NCBI RefSeq assembly: GCF_045037415.1
Contig: NZ_CP173438.1
Origin: Escherichia coli
GTDB lineage: Bacteria > Pseudomonadota > Gammaproteobacteria > Enterobacterales > Enterobacteriaceae
Direction: 5' to 3' (one strand)
DNA length: 64,000 bases
Shown: in pieces, positions 28,027 to 34,511 of the stretch
Layout of the letters: each line of letters starts with the position of its first letter
Numbering within the stretch: position 1 is the first letter of the stretch
Made by a program: the position numbers and the translations under genes
The notes under the pieces: generated by a model
The model's database searches: none
What the model was told of the DNA's origin: nothing
What the model saw: the letters and a program-made list of their open reading frames with translations, nothing else

Positions 28027-28920
<894 letters not shown>

Positions 28921-28995: not shown

Positions 28996-29216
28996 AAGGA
29001 AAAGCCGAAGGGCGTCAACCGAAAAATAACCAATGATGGTGAGGAAAAATCAGGGAAGATGAAAAAAACTCATCTTAATTAGAGGCGATAAAAGATTTCT
29101 CTATAGCGCAATCCACCTCGCACGTTTTGACTCATATTCTGACAACACAGCGACACCTGGGCTAATTCGAAAAACAACGTCCTGCCACCGGATGGTGATG
29201 TTAAGGCATCTGATTC

Positions 29217-29238
29217 GGCCTGCGCCCTCGCGTAGGCC
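29217..29238 (-). terminator. imperfect hairpin downstream of the nucleotidase-like gene
   Basis: ggcctgcgccctcgcgtaggcc, 8-bp stem with one mismatch, about 60 bp beyond the minus-strand stop at 29299; no clear U-tract. Confidence 0.3.
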
Positions 29239-29298
29239 GAATACAGGATCTGCGCAATCAACGGGTAACAAACAGTTGAGTCAATTCAGTGCGCACTT

Positions 29299-30852
29299 TT
29301 ATTTGATATCCTTCACGCGCATACCGTTGAGCTGTTCATCCGTAATGGTGTTGCCCGCTTTGAAGTAATCAACCACCGCGTGATAAACGTAATAACCGCC
29401 CGTTGTGTTACGCGCTTTCCCTTCGGTAAAGGCGGTAAAACCATCTCCACCATCAGCAAGGAAACTCTGAGTAGCAATGTGATAAACCGTCGCATCTTCA
29501 ATGGGTTTGCCATTCAAAGTCAGTGTGATTACCCGCTGACCAACCGGCCTGTTGCTGTCGTACTTCATTTCCAGGCCTTTCGATACCTGTAAAACGCCAT
29601 TGCTTAAACTTGCGCCGTGTTCCATCAGACTGCGTAATTGTTTACCCATGAGTTCCATCGTCACCAGTTCGTTGGGGAACGGAAACGTACTGATGACGCC
29701 GCCCATCGTGATCGCCCCTGCGGGGATCTCATTGCGGATACCACCAGAGTTTGTTAACGCCAGTTGGGTGTTTTTACCCGCCGCTACCAATAAAGCGTCA
29801 GCCGCCAGGTTCCCGAGGGAAGCCGATTCACCATAGGCACGTTTTAATTCAACCGGCGATTGCGCCACCGTTTGTTGCACCACTTCATCAAGCTTTTTAT
29901 TCCAGCCGTCGATCACCTGTTTCGTTTGCGGATCGGGCTTCCACTCGTCAGCGTAAATGGTTTTAAGCTCGAAGTTTTTCACCGTAAAATTATGCGGCTT
30001 CTCTTTGTAGTCGAGAACCAGTTTGCCCACATCAATCCCGCCGCTGTCAGTGGAGAGGATGAGCGTATTGCCGACTTTAATCGGTTCCGGCGTACCCACA
30101 TGTGCATGTCCGGTGATCAAAATATCCAGCCCTTTCACCTGACTTGCCGTCTGAATATCTTTATCCAACGCGCGACGCACATCTGTGCCTCCCATACTGG
30201 ACTGGCGGGCTGGAACACCTTCGTGGATCAGGGCGACGGTCAAATCAACCTTGCCTTTGAGTTCATCGATATAACGTTGTAGCCATTTAATTTCATCGCG
30301 CGCTTCAATACCCACGCGCGTGGCAGCAGATACCGTATCATTAAAGGCAAATACTCCGTGCAAACCAATAACGCCTATTTTCACACCGTCTTTTTCGATG
30401 ATGGTATAGGGCTTATCCCAGAATGATTTACTGCTGTTCTGATAAAAAATATTGCCCTGCACAATAGGGAATTTTGCCTGGCTCAACTGTAATAATGTGT
30501 TGTCCCAGCCGTGGTCAAATTCATGGTTGCCTATTGTGACGGCATCAAACGGCATAGTATTCATAATATCGATAATAGCCTTACCTTTGGTCAGGCTGCT
30601 GATATATGGCCCGGTAAAATAGTCGCCCGCATCAAAAAACCATGTCGCTTTATTTTTTGCTTTTTCTTGCTTAACCAGCGTAGTGATATTTGCCCAGCCG
30701 CCAATATCCCGTTTACCGTCAGCGATCCACGGCACTTTATAAGGCTCGACATGTGCATGGAGGTCGTTGGTATAAATGATGGTGACATCTTTAGCGCAAG
30801 CCCAGAATGGCAGTGTTAATGCGATACCCGCAGCAAGTATTTTAATTTTCAT
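29299..30852 (-). CDS. secreted bifunctional metallophosphoesterase / 5'-nucleotidase-family protein (UshA/CpdB-like); not in K-12 at this position
   Basis: 517-aa ORF with signal peptide [20 protein letters not shown]; calcineurin-like motifs [38 protein letters not shown]; C-terminal half consistent with 5'-nucleotidase substrate-binding domain. Confidence 0.8.
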
Positions 30853-30984
30853 AAACAGTCCCTTTCAGTGAGATAAAGGATTGCTACATTACGTTCTGAA
30901 AGACTTATTTATGTGAGAGTAATCACATCCGCAGGGGATAGTTGCCGGACAAAATCAACGACCTTGTGAAATCGTTGGTGATAT

Positions 30985-32115
30985 ATGTCGACTCTGTTTA
31001 CGATTAATGCCTGTAAGTCGTTTGGTTGCCGTAATTTAGGGCAGCCAACATCGACAGATTATAGCTGGCCCGACTATCGACTGGGTTATCCGGCACTGCA
31101 CTGTCGGGCATGTGGCAGTTACCCGCCGTTGTTTGACGAGCAACAATTTCGTGACTGGTTGACAGTTCACTTATCTACTTTTGCAACAGAGAAAGGCCAT
31201 TTTTGCCCGGTATGTTATGGCACAGAGACGATTTGTTATGGTCACAATCCACAGGGTTCGCAACGCATTCAATGCCGTAACTGCAAAAAAGTATGGACAC
31301 CCAAACAATATCAGAAAGAAATAACGACTCCCGAAATAATCGAAACGGTTGCTTTGCTCGTGCCATTTCAGGGAGTCAGCAGCGGGCAGAAACTGTATGT
31401 TTTAATCAGTTTTGATGCTCTTCGCGGTAATATTCTTCATCTTTCTACTAATTACACGCAGCATCAGGCTGGAGAAAGTCTGCATTATCGATACAGAGGA
31501 AATGCAGAACCAGAGTTACACGACAATAATATTGTACAACGCGTTGATATGCGCGAAGCACAATTTCTACGCCGCAGTCAGTTTGATGAAATTCAGTATG
31601 GCAGCGCAGCGCTCAAGCGCAATGCCAAAGGCGCTATTCTGCGTCCGGTTATCACTGCACACGGGCATTTCAGAGTACTGAATATTTTATTCCCTACAGT
31701 AAAAACACATGTAATTTCACACGAGTGTTTTTTAAGAGGTGCCATTATTACGGCCTGGGCTGATCTGTTTCGCCAACAGCAAGGTGAAATTTGGTTTATT
31801 GAAGAGGAAATAGCTGACGATACCGATAATATGCCCTGGCGTTTTCAGGGAAAAACTTATCACGGCTGGTGGAAAAATCAGTGGCAACTCTGGGTTCAGG
31901 GAAAAAATCGTAAAATGGTATGTGCATTAACGGGCGGAAAGAGTAGCAAAGCAGAAATGCTCTCTTTAGCAACCAGCAGACATTTTATCGACTGGCTACA
32001 TAAACAAGCAGTATTTACTCACAGCGCCCCGCTTTCCGCAGGGCGCGTTACGCAAATACTGCTTTCTCTGGCTCAGGATTACAACAACTGCGCCAGTCGG
32101 TTAATATCCGACTGA
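30985..32115 (+). CDS. cysteine-rich zinc-ribbon protein, transposase-like N-terminus (IS1 InsA / IS1595-type zinc finger), C-terminal domain of unknown function
   Basis: 376-aa ORF; CxxC pairs at C10/C15, C40/C43, C74/C77, C97/C100; CPVCYGTETICYGHNPQGSQRIQCRNCKKVW parallels the IS1 InsA CPxC...QRYxCxxCxKxW pattern; hand-estimated GC near 42 percent; last 37 nt overlap the antisense metL 3' end. Confidence 0.65.
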   Translation: MSTLFTINACKSFGCRNLGQPTSTDYSWPDYRLGYPALHCRACGSYPPLFDEQQFRDWLTVHLSTFATEKGHFCPVCYGTETICYGHNPQGSQRIQCRNCKKVWTPKQYQKEITTPEIIETVALLVPFQGVSSGQKLYVLISFDALRGNILHLSTNYTQHQAGESLHYRYRGNAEPELHDNNIVQRVDMREAQFLRRSQFDEIQYGSAALKRNAKGAILRPVITAHGHFRVLNILFPTVKTHVISHECFLRGAIITAWADLFRQQQGEIWFIEEEIADDTDNMPWRFQGKTYHGWWKNQWQLWVQGKNRKMVCALTGGKSSKAEMLSLATSRHFIDWLHKQAVFTHSAPLSAGRVTQILLSLAQDYNNCASRLISD

Positions 32116-34511
32116 ATCGCCCCGGCGGTGACGTCGCGCCCTGCACCTGGCCCGCGGATCACCAGCGGGTTGTCGCGATACCAGCGGCTTTCGATGGCAA
32201 AGACGTTATCGCATGGCAGTAGTGATGCCAGCGGATGGTCTTCACGCACCGCTTCCACGCCCACACGCGCTTTGCCATTGGCATCGAAACGCGCCACGTA
32301 GCGCAGCACCAGCCCCATTTCGCGGGCCGCTTCCAGTCGTTGCACCATCTGCTCGTTAAGTTCATCGCCATTTTCAAAGAAATGGTCGATGCTGCCGCCT
32401 TCGCAATGGGCAGGCACCAGTGATTCAACACGTACCTGGTCCGGTTCAATGTTGTAACCCGCTTCACGCGCCAGAATCACCAGCTTGCGCATTACGTCTT
32501 TGCCGGAAAGGTCATCACGCGGGTCAGGTTCGGTTAAGCCTTGCTGCCACGCCTGATCCACCAGTTCGGTAAACGGCACGCTACCGTCGAATTGCAGGAA
32601 CAGCCAGGAGAGCGTGCCGGAGAAGATCCCACTGATCGACAAAATGGTATCGCCGCTGTCGATCAGATCGCGCACGGTATGGTTGATCGGCAAACCCGCA
32701 CCGACGGTGGCGTTGTACAGCCAGTGACGCCCGGTTTTTTCGAAGGCGTCGTGGATCTGGCGATATTTATTGCTGTCGCTTGCTCCTGCCAGTTTGTTGG
32801 CACTGATGACGTGGAAACCGTGGCTGGCGAAATCAAGATACTGGTCAGCGAGCTGCTGGCTGGCGGTAACGTCCAGCACCACTAAATCATCATACGGATG
32901 GGCGCGCATCCACAGGAACAGCGACTCTTCATCCTGCTCGACCGCTTCATCGTTGAAGAAGGCTAACGCGCGGCTGGCGTCCAGACCGTCATAGCTCAAC
33001 AGGCTACGGCGGCTGTCCACCACGCCTGCCAGCACAAATTCAAAGCCGGTACGTGCCGAAAGCGTACTCTGCTCACGGGCGAACAGTTCCAGCCAGCGGG
33101 AACCGATATTGCCCTTGCCGAACAATACCAGGCCGATGCGTTTTTCCGCGCGGAAGACGGACTGATGCAGCCCCTGAATCAGGCTTTCGGTCGGGCCGGT
33201 GCGCAGTACTGCCACCAGGCTGATGCCGTCATCGGACTGCCAGGTAAATTCGACCGGCTGGCCTTTCAGTTGCTGCCAGAAGCGGTGGCAATGCAGCGGG
33301 TTACGGGTGACGCCCGCCCCAACCATCGCCACCAGCGCCAGCCCCTGACGCAGGCGCAGTTCGCCAGGTAATCCCGCTTCGTCGAGGATTTTCAGCGCAC
33401 TGTCGGCCACTTCTGAGGTGTAGCAAAATTGCAGCAACTGGCGATCGTTATGCACGCCAACCGCCAGTGGACGTACCTGAGCACGTTTCAGGATCTGGTC
33501 GATCTCTTTATGCGCCAGTTTGAAATCCTGGCTGGCGGGCACCTGAAACTCAATCAAGCAGACATCATCATGGCTGGTGACAATACGCGCACCAGTACCG
33601 GAGGCCAGCACGCGTTCAATGCGCGTGGAACCTTGATCCGGCGTGTAGCTACAGCGCAGTTGCAGGTCGATTTCGCTGCCAGAAACGGGCTGTAAAGTAC
33701 GGGCATGAAGAACGGGAGCCGCCAGACGCGCCAGTTCGCTGGCTTCATCCAGACGCAGCAACGGCAGCAGGCAGGCATCTTTCACTTTACGCGGGTCGGC
33801 GCTATATACCCCGGCGACGTCGCTCCAGATGGTTACGCGAGAAACACCCGCCAGCGCACCGATTTGTGTCGCGGAATAGTCGGAACCGTTACGCCCCAGC
33901 AGCACCGTTTCACCGGCGTTGTTACGGCTGATAAACCCGGTCACCACCAGACGTTTGCCCGGATGTTGTACCAGTAGCTGTTGCAGCAACGGGTAAGAAA
34001 GCCCTTCATCAACCTGCGGTTGCGCAGCGCGTTCAGCGCGTAAAAACTCGCGGGCATCAAGCCAGGCCGATGGCAGCCCTTGTTGATTAAGCACCGCAGA
34101 CATCAGGCGCGCCGACCACACTTCACCGTGGCCCACCACTTCCGCATACACCGCATCGTTAATACCGCTGTCGAGCAACGCCGCCAGGCGCTCAAGATCG
34201 CTGACAAAAGCGCTAATGAGGTTATCGGCTTCTTCGGCGGGTAGCAGGCCGCTAATCAGATCGCACTGATAACGACGTAATGTTTGTTGAACCTGATGCG
34301 CAGAGAGACGATCGGTCTGGCTTAGTTTCAACCAGTTAATCAACTGGTTAGTGGTGCTACCGGCGGCGGAAACCACCATCATATCGTCAGGCTGAGAGTA
34401 CTCCGCCATAATGCCCGCGACACGCAAATAACACTTCACATCAGCCAGACTACTGCCACCAAATTTATGCAGTTGACGACCTTTCGCCCCTGCCTGCGCA
34501 ATCACACTCAT
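32079..34511 (-). CDS. metL: bifunctional aspartokinase II / homoserine dehydrogenase II
   Basis: 810-aa ORF MSVIAQAGAKGRQLHKFGGSSLADVKCY... ending DINRLAQLL. Confidence 0.97.
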   Translation of the reverse strand: MSVIAQAGAKGRQLHKFGGSSLADVKCYLRVAGIMAEYSQPDDMMVVSAAGSTTNQLINWLKLSQTDRLSAHQVQQTLRRYQCDLISGLLPAEEADNLISAFVSDLERLAALLDSGINDAVYAEVVGHGEVWSARLMSAVLNQQGLPSAWLDAREFLRAERAAQPQVDEGLSYPLLQQLLVQHPGKRLVVTGFISRNNAGETVLLGRNGSDYSATQIGALAGVSRVTIWSDVAGVYSADPRKVKDACLLPLLRLDEASELARLAAPVLHARTLQPVSGSEIDLQLRCSYTPDQGSTRIERVLASGTGARIVTSHDDVCLIEFQVPASQDFKLAHKEIDQILKRAQVRPLAVGVHNDRQLLQFCYTSEVADSALKILDEAGLPGELRLRQGLALVAMVGAGVTRNPLHCHRFWQQLKGQPVEFTWQSDDGISLVAVLRTGPTESLIQGLHQSVFRAEKRIGLVLFGKGNIGSRWLELFAREQSTLSARTGFEFVLAGVVDSRRSLLSYDGLDASRALAFFNDEAVEQDEESLFLWMRAHPYDDLVVLDVTASQQLADQYLDFASHGFHVISANKLAGASDSNKYRQIHDAFEKTGRHWLYNATVGAGLPINHTVRDLIDSGDTILSISGIFSGTLSWLFLQFDGSVPFTELVDQAWQQGLTEPDPRDDLSGKDVMRKLVILAREAGYNIEPDQVRVESLVPAHCEGGSIDHFFENGDELNEQMVQRLEAAREMGLVLRYVARFDANGKARVGVEAVREDHPLASLLPCDNVFAIESRWYRDNPLVIRGPGAGRDVTAGAIQSDINRLAQLL

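Follow-up and report, generated by a model that had tools for sequence, protein, structure and literature searches.

A probable domesticated IS1-like transposase paired with a periplasmic 5′-nucleotidase in Escherichia coli, and its possible role as a local regulator of nucleotide and nucleoside scavenging

A cysteine-rich open reading frame (ORF) of 376 amino acids was studied in a 64,000-nucleotide stretch of Escherichia coli DNA (contig NZ_CP173438.1, assembly GCF_045037415.1), hereafter called the window. The ORF is divergent from the gene of a periplasmic 5′-nucleotidase. We conclude, with a probability of about 0.9, that its product is a domesticated, immobile IS1-like transposase linked to the nucleotide and nucleoside scavenging pathway. 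Domestication is argued from four observations: the protein has a transposase ancestry, the hallmarks of mobility were lost, syntenic orthologues are found across species, and the gene is under purifying selection. Because of the gene arrangement and of conserved promoter motifs, we also propose, with odds slightly better than even (about 0.55), that the protein would act as a local transcription regulator of nucleotide and nucleoside scavenging.

The ORF listing gave the same boundaries and length for the ORF as the initial annotation of the window (Table 1). In RefSeq, the product is named 'hypothetical protein' or 'cytoplasmic protein'. The gene order in the window is metF, 5′-nucleotidase, target ORF, metL and metB. 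A GC content of about 42% had been estimated by hand for the ORF; the measured value, 45.1%, is close to this estimate and is indeed below that of the window (52.3%), with metL at 57.9%. A total of 253 homologues was collected. Full-length homologues were found in Escherichia, Citrobacter, Klebsiella, Enterobacter, Kluyvera, Pluralibacter and others, with identities down to 63% among the matches listed. A wider family of 400-570-residue proteins, with 19-40% identity, is represented in Proteus, Atlantibacter, Aliivibrio, Photobacterium, Vibrio and others. Pairwise comparisons of Escherichia-clade alleles of the target gene gave ratios of nonsynonymous to synonymous substitution rates (dN/dS) of 0.12-0.23, and the corresponding values for intact, diverged copies of the nucleotidase gene were 0.02-0.04. 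An AlphaFold2 model of the target protein, calculated from a 51-sequence alignment, had a mean predicted local distance difference test score (pLDDT) of 94.6 and a predicted template modelling score (pTM) of 0.93. From the dN/dS values and the pLDDT of the model, the ORF is a real gene, and it is under purifying selection.

To describe the N-terminal region, we located the cysteines of the first 100 residues, which are at positions 10, 15, 40, 43, 74, 77, 84, 97 and 100. Four CxxC pairs had been announced in this region. Three of them are CxxC motifs (40-43, 74-77, 97-100), and the fourth is a Cx4C motif (10-15). These cysteines belong to two zinc ribbons separated by a helix. The key residues of the first, family-specific ribbon show a conservation of at least 90% across the 51 aligned sequences (A3), and in the model this ribbon contains two short strands (E26-30 and E37-40). 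The second ribbon is of the InsA/IS1 type. It is followed by an RNase H-like domain and by a C-terminal helical region in which N367 is found in 48 of the 51 aligned sequences. A helix-turn-helix (HTH) segment of about 55-60 residues is missing from the E. coli protein, where it would fall between residues 108 and 113 (alignments A3 and A5). In the model of the long-form relative P0143 (pLDDT 92.7), three helices are seen between ribbon 2 and the first strand of the core. The HTH is lost in the E. coli short form and kept in longer relatives.

The resemblance of ribbon 2 to InsA, described motif for motif in the initial annotation, was then evaluated. With the target protein alone, the Pfam profile PF03811 gave an independent E-value of 0.023, below threshold, and the NCBIfam model IS1_IS1595_Zn (NF050000) scored 21.8 bits, short of its cutoff of 28. 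More generally, searches of PHROGs, PADLOC, Pfam and NCBIfam with the single sequence gave sub-threshold zinc-ribbon matches or nothing, and a PDB search with it gave no match. Profile matches in the PDB to eukaryotic C2H2 zinc-finger arrays were set aside as an artefact of Cys/His composition. At the family level, PF03811 was matched with E<=0.001 by 8 of the 51 relatives (best 1.4e-7), and several relatives passed the NF050000 cutoff. In long-form relatives, the match covered the first 85 of the 199 positions of the IS1 transposase model, which hold the ribbon and HTH of the InsA part, with E-values down to 1e-9. Using hhalign, the family profile was aligned with IS1 InsAB′ (from locus L055) with a probability of 96.5-97.3%. 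As judged from these profile comparisons, the InsA homology of ribbon 2 is real for the family, and the single-sequence form of the initial claim did not reach threshold. Past the InsA part, the hhalign alignment to IS1 is of low confidence. For this reason, we do not claim that the C-terminal domain derives specifically from an IS1 DDE domain rather than from that of another DDE family.

The last 270 residues or so, proposed earlier for a fold comparison, adopt in the model the RNase H-like fold of DDE transposases. The two catalytic aspartates are absent. The beta1 position of the canonical aspartate is occupied by T121, with T or S in 94% of the 51 aligned sequences. The position after beta4 corresponds to R220-P221 and carries no acidic residue, P221 being present in 96% of the sequences. 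The sole acidic position kept is E/D247, after beta5. Other invariant or near-invariant residues are R197, H228, H246, Y205, N156, W296, W300 and N367. The model thus indicates that the transposase fold is kept and that the DDE triad is lost, neither canonical aspartate being conserved as an acidic residue. Zinc ribbons associated with an RNase H-like fold are also found in defence nucleases, and weak Foldseek matches to the PIWI domains of prokaryotic Argonaute, SPARTA and SPARDA proteins were obtained. An anti-phage defence protein or a new nucleic-acid-targeting effector, the latter suggested in the initial annotation, would fit these resemblances. However, the catalytic triad is not intact, no defence context is seen, and PADLOC returned 0 families for the target gene and the nucleotidase gene, the neighbourhoods being metabolic. 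We regard a defence or effector role as very improbable.

We next considered the hallmarks of a mobile element. As the initial annotation had noted, no terminal inverted repeats surround the gene; the search, made around the gene and around the two-gene cassette that it forms with the nucleotidase gene, gave short chance-level pairs only. IS1 models scored 21-38 bits against a cutoff of 100 and covered the first 85 of their 199 positions; the target protein itself scored 21.4 bits with NCBIfam transpos_IS1 (cutoff 100). The gene is a single uninterrupted ORF with none of the insA/insB -1 frameshift architecture. One copy of the gene is present in the window, and a 3.3-kb cassette query matched a median of one place per E. 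coli genome. Automated names such as 'IS1 family transposase' and 'Transposase and inactivated derivatives', together with the weak match of the N-terminus to IS1 models, would suggest an ordinary insertion sequence (IS), active or decaying. Set against them are the low IS1 scores without terminal repeats, the single copy, the synteny across genera, the dN/dS of about 0.15, the absence of frameshift architecture and the absence of a conserved Asp-Asp pair. Moreover, a genuine IS1A found inside the target gene of one strain clearly differs from it in sequence. An ordinary IS copy is thus hardly credible, and the earlier proposal of a domesticated, transposase-derived protein is upheld by the InsA-like ribbon, the lack of IS ends, the single copy, the synteny and the purifying selection.

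The cassette is carried by 1837 of 5426 complete E. coli genomes. The same metF-metL site is used in E. coli, Citrobacter, Klebsiella, Kosakonia, Phytobacter, Pseudocitrobacter, Superficieibacter and Salmonella. K-12-type strains carry another sequence at this place, including an annotated 44-aa hypothetical ORF (empty-site example, L002), and alignment with an empty-site strain shows that the cassette-specific DNA ends at about position 32077. The low GC content could have suggested a horizontal island or a recent import. This reading was rejected because of the cross-genus synteny at metF-metL. Despite the lower GC content, it is more likely that the cassette was present ancestrally and was lost from many E. 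coli than that it was imported recently.

Several copies of the cassette are damaged or unusually located. In E. coli AVS0456 (L055, 2939-3636), the IS1A mentioned above splits the target gene into two annotated pseudogene halves. The first catalytic aspartate of its InsB reads Gly (AEMGEQW), the canonical sequence being AEMDEQW. Truncated target genes were found in Escherichia sp. MOD1-EC7003 (second cassette), Kluyvera and Salmonella arizonae (decayed copies among L046, L048, L049 and L054), and both the nucleotidase and the target gene are frameshifted in Citrobacter amalonaticus. Plasmid-borne copies were also considered, and the plasmid collection gave four Salmonella matches (H19-H22). 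The one inspected, H22 (NZ_LN868945.1, L059), is labelled a Salmonella Senftenberg plasmid and carries metJ-metB-metL, metF, katG and gldA. It looks like a chromosomal segment rather than a plasmid, and plasmid carriage was accordingly rejected for this match. At this locus, an extra hypothetical gene and mscS are located between the target gene and metL.

In order to relate the family to a pathway, its gene neighbourhoods were compared. In the window, as initially annotated, a divergent nucleotidase gene adjoins the target ORF; it encodes 517 residues with a signal peptide. The protein is near-identical by sequence score to PDB 3IVD/3IVE ('Nucleotidase', 1117 bits) and has UshA/NadN/Nt5e-like NCBIfam matches. 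The locus search, made with the closer alignment, reached Enterobacteriaceae and one Rahnella record. A divergent adjoining 5′-nucleotidase homologue was found at all 37 enterobacterial loci with upstream DNA (37/37), including cassettes elsewhere in the genome, second paralogous cassettes and the long-form clade (35-40% identity). The initial annotation had suggested that the protein perhaps regulates the divergent nucleotidase gene. The pairing with the nucleotidase gene holds at all these loci, and the regulation itself is proposed from the arrangement and from the promoter motifs described below.

Ten distant relatives were looked up. One, P0153 (25% identity), was uninformative, the contig ending 216 nt upstream. 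All nine informative ones (9/9, 19-30% identity) adjoin genes for breaking down or taking up nucleic acids, nucleotides or nucleosides. P0138 (30% identity) is divergent from a NupC-type transporter gene and a nucleoside phosphorylase gene, P0143 (26%) from a phosphopentomutase-like gene, a nucleoside phosphorylase gene and a nucleoside:H+ symporter gene, and P0150 from Proteus (23%) from a 5′-nucleotidase gene. P0164 from Aliivibrio (24%) and P0199 (21%) lie 22 and 51 nt, respectively, downstream of a 5′-nucleotidase gene on the same strand. P0162 (25%) is clustered with genes for Tsx, a 5′-nucleotidase and a sulfatase/phosphodiesterase, and P0160 from Atlantibacter (27%) comes after genes for Tsx, a sulfatase/phosphodiesterase and a radical-SAM maturase. 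Finally, P0219 from Photobacterium (19%) is downstream of a nucleoside phosphorylase gene, and P0193 from Thaumasiovibrio (23%) is convergent with the endonuclease I gene.

Strict pairing with a secreted 5′-nucleotidase in Enterobacteriaceae, together with a target protein that evolves faster than the nucleotidase, would also be expected of a cytoplasmic partner of this enzyme, such as an inhibitor, a chaperone or an export factor. The classical intracellular inhibitor of E. coli UshA is an analogue for such a partner. We consider this proposal improbable. Distant relatives are paired with cytoplasmic phosphorylases and membrane transporters at loci that have no nucleotidase, and the zinc-ribbon/HTH head is a nucleic-acid-binding module.

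The 132-bp intergenic region between the nucleotidase gene and the target ORF was then analysed using an alignment (A6) of 19 such regions, in which three blocks are conserved (Table 1). The central one contains a perfect CRP core, TGTGA-N6-TCACA, the centre of which is 67.5 nt away from the ATG of the nucleotidase gene and 65.5 nt away from that of the target ORF. No other perfect match occurs in the 64-kb window, the chance expectation being 0.07. CRP-like sites recur in the intergenic or promoter regions of long-form and distant loci. The block next to the target ORF contains an inverted repeat, whose arms hold in E. coli a GTTGRT core (GTTGAT, GTTGGT) and whose right arm AAATCGTTGGT (30969-30979) is invariant in A6. 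In the 19 regions, which come from 19 species and whose target genes encode proteins about 60-95% identical to that of the window, 96.7% of the cells of the repeat pair and no compensatory changes are seen. A related 12-mer with the same GTTGRT core, TTTTGNGTTGRT, was defined on three distant loci (L006, L014 and L013), where it precedes the family gene by 22, 30 and 153 nt, respectively. It was met again 152 and 127 nt upstream of operons comprising a nucleotidase gene and the family gene (L010 and L058). All nine matches in the approximately 650 kb of fetched loci fall in such promoter regions, the estimated chance expectation being about 0.6 over all the approximately 650 kb and <=1e-3 per promoter region.

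Table 1. Positions in the window of the target ORF, its domains, neighbouring genes and conserved DNA elements
Feature	Position	Strand	Basis
Target ORF, 376 aa	30985-32115	+	ATG start, ORF listing; RefSeq WP_000105529.1
Zinc ribbon 1, family-specific, residues 8-44 (N8, C10, K11, C15 ... C40, C43)	31006-31116	+	51-sequence alignment
Zinc ribbon 2, InsA/IS1-type, residues 74-104 (C74, C77, C97, C100)	31204-31296	+	PF03811, NCBIfam, hhalign
RNase H-like (DDE transposase/integrase) fold, residues ~118-320, with four-strand beta insertion 268-316	31336-31944	+	
C-terminal helical region, residues ~321-368, ending in conserved Y366-N367	31945-32088	+	Model helices 320-375
Periplasmic 5′-nucleotidase, metallophosphatase family, 517 aa, signal peptide	29299-30852	-	PDB and NCBIfam matches
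Two-gene cassette, absent from 'empty-site' E. coli including K-12 derivatives	29071-32077		Boundary alignments with empty-site strains
Conserved block TAC.TTACGTTCTGAAAG	30885-30901		Alignment A6
Perfect CRP core TGTGA-N6-TCACA	30912-30927		Conserved in 19 aligned intergenic regions
Conserved block CAAAATCAACGACC-N5-AAATCGTTGGT	30949-30979		Alignment A6
Inverted repeat ATCAACGA-N10-TCGTTGGT, candidate operator just upstream of the target ORF	30954-30979		Alignment A6
Convergent 37-nt overlap of the 3′ ends of the target ORF and metL	32079-32115		ORF list
metF	28027-28917	-	
metL	32079-34511	-	

Promoters may be placed around these elements. TAATGT (- strand, 30886-30891) is a candidate -10 hexamer for the nucleotidase gene, which would put the CRP centre near -40.5, and CAAAAT (+ strand, 30950-30955) a candidate -10 hexamer for the target ORF, with the CRP centre near -42.5. 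The predicted divergent promoters would be of class II type, with start sites predicted at about 30879 (- strand) and about 30962 (+ strand), and the palindrome would straddle that of the target ORF. The GTTGG core also resembles the conserved AAGTTGG block of IS1 ends. This resemblance spans 5-6 nt only, in the orientation opposite to that of the left inverted repeat, and is an unproven lead.

From this arrangement, we propose the following mechanism. The DNA-binding head, made of InsA-like zinc ribbons (two here, with an HTH in longer relatives), would bind ATCAACGA-N10-TCGTTGGT (core GTTGRT) in the CRP-dependent divergent promoter region. The protein would thereby control the adjoining scavenging gene as well as its own gene. 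The former catalytic RNase H-like domain could serve in dimerisation or oligomerisation, in the sensing of a nucleoside or nucleotide ligand, or in both. DNA binding to the motifs, the direction of regulation and ligand sensing are predictions.

Some observations weigh against the proposed regulatory role or against parts of the evidence for it. The HTH of IS1 InsA is thought to contact DNA; in the short form, which lacks it, binding would rest on the zinc ribbons alone. Some relatives are in the same operon as the nucleotidase gene and downstream of it, rather than divergent. The promoter elements are consensus guesses, and the palindrome could be a hairpin of the 5′ untranslated region (-6.7 kcal/mol) or the site of another factor; as to an RNA hairpin, no compensatory changes were seen. 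For the loss of the DDE triad, we relied on conservation and on position in the secondary structure rather than on a three-dimensional superposition. The literature yielded no paper or experiment on the protein, its family or a link to nucleoside metabolism. Finally, the strongly conserved polar residues of the C-terminal domain (R197, H228, H246, E247, Y205 and N156) would also suit a new enzymatic site.

This last point leads to another role for a transposase-derived protein. With a new catalytic or ligand site built from H228, H246, E247, R197 and Y205, the protein could be a cytoplasmic enzyme or a nucleic-acid- or nucleotide-processing factor of the same scavenging pathway. Such a role would account for the His, Glu, Arg and Tyr residues that are invariant or nearly so in the C-terminal domain, and would agree with the missing HTH of the short form; co-localisation at the level of a pathway is expected for enzymes as well. 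However, no enzyme family resembles the target protein, and an InsA-type DNA-binding head was kept under selection. Neighbours that vary between relatives, from a periplasmic nucleotidase or a cytoplasmic phosphorylase to transporters and a secreted nuclease, are easier to reconcile with a regulator than with a single-substrate enzyme, and a divergent layout with conserved palindromic DNA at the start of the gene is typical of regulators. We view an enzymatic role as unlikely and retain the local regulator as the proposed function.

Other features of the region were recorded. The target ORF and metL are convergent and overlap at their 3′ ends, so that the last 12 codons of the target ORF are antisense to the last codons of metL. 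The family-conserved Y366-N367 (TAC AAC, 32080-32085) is encoded within this overlap. The overlap is missing in some Citrobacter species. Within the 3′ end of the target ORF, directly after the stop codon of metL, there is an imperfect 27-nt inverted repeat (32006-32064, 78% complementary, 5-nt loop), which may act as a terminator for metL although it lies in coding sequence. On the other side, a hairpin with 13-nt arms (29213-29242, 92% complementary) follows the stop codon of the nucleotidase gene in cassette-specific DNA and may be a terminator or a repetitive extragenic palindromic (REP)-like element. The nucleotidase genes of the window and of L021 are near-identical (synonymous divergence dS 0.006), whereas the target genes differ with a dS of 0.47 and 88% amino acid identity. 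This indicates either a recombination breakpoint between both genes or old allelic lineages of a regulator-like gene. Cassettes outside metF-metL (L024, L026, L027, L046 and L047) carry 1-2 extra tandem 5′-nucleotidase paralogues beside the conserved pair, 56-68% identical to the reference nucleotidases, and that of L046 also contains a radical-SAM maturase-like gene.

The family was compared with known systems. IS1 InsA is a DNA-binding autorepressor acting at the element end just upstream of insA, and the candidate operator of the target family likewise sits just upstream of its own gene. Long-form relatives and IS1 InsAB′/InsA have the same domain order, a CxxC...CxxC ribbon, an HTH and an RNase H-like fold. 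In contrast to IS1, the target family has an extra N-terminal zinc ribbon, a single ORF with no -1 frameshift and about 150 extra residues (the beta insertion and the C-terminal helices). In addition, its E. coli form has no HTH and the DDE Asp-Asp pair is not conserved. Its genes are not mobile, have no inverted repeats and are fixed beside host catabolic genes.

Domestication of transposases into regulators is well documented in eukaryotes. FHY3/FAR1, from Mutator-like elements, and DAYSLEEPER, from hAT, are domesticated DDE transposases experimentally shown to be transcription factors. As in these proteins, a transposase DNA-binding domain and an RNase H-like core are found here under purifying selection, at a fixed locus, immobile and with a proposed regulatory role. 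The differences are that the target family is bacterial (Enterobacterales and Vibrionales) and that its role is proposed from sequence. In bacteria, TldR proteins are nuclease-dead repressors derived from TnpB; they are RNA-guided, have a RuvC fold and come from IS200/IS605-type elements. Here too, a transposon-encoded nuclease has lost its catalytic residues and would have been co-opted to control neighbouring host genes, but the ancestor of the target protein is a DDE transposase, and no guide RNA is seen. With CytR, DeoR and XapR acting with CRP, the family shares the target gene classes (5′-nucleotidase, deoD/deoB-like, nupC/nupG-like, tsx-like) and a CRP site in the promoter region, whereas these regulators, of the LacI, DeoR and LysR families, have no sequence or fold relationship to the target protein. 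A described case of a DDE transposase domesticated into a regulator in bacteria was not found in the literature, and in a 2022 review of mobile-element recruitment in prokaryotes, the terms 'DDE' and 'IS1' are absent. The present case is a bacterial variant of a known event, transposase domestication. A further proposal, which we make tentatively and with somewhat less than even odds, is that this would be the first bacterial transcription factor family arising from a dead DDE (IS1-type) transposase, its RNase H-like domain serving as a nucleoside or nucleotide sensor in Enterobacterales and Vibrionales and forming a new regulatory layer beside CRP, CytR and DeoR.

One third of complete E. coli genomes carry the family, which also occurs in Klebsiella, Citrobacter, Enterobacter, Salmonella, Proteus, Vibrionaceae and others, and its absence from K-12 may explain why the gene has received little study. 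The names that databases give it automatically do not agree with one another ('cytoplasmic protein', 'IS1 family transposase', 'lactate dehydrogenase'), and recognising it as domesticated would correct a widespread mis-annotation as transposase. The target protein becomes a candidate regulator for a nucleotidase that is structurally solved and functionally orphan (PDB 3IVD), and the gene-neighbourhood rule gives the family a directly testable function.

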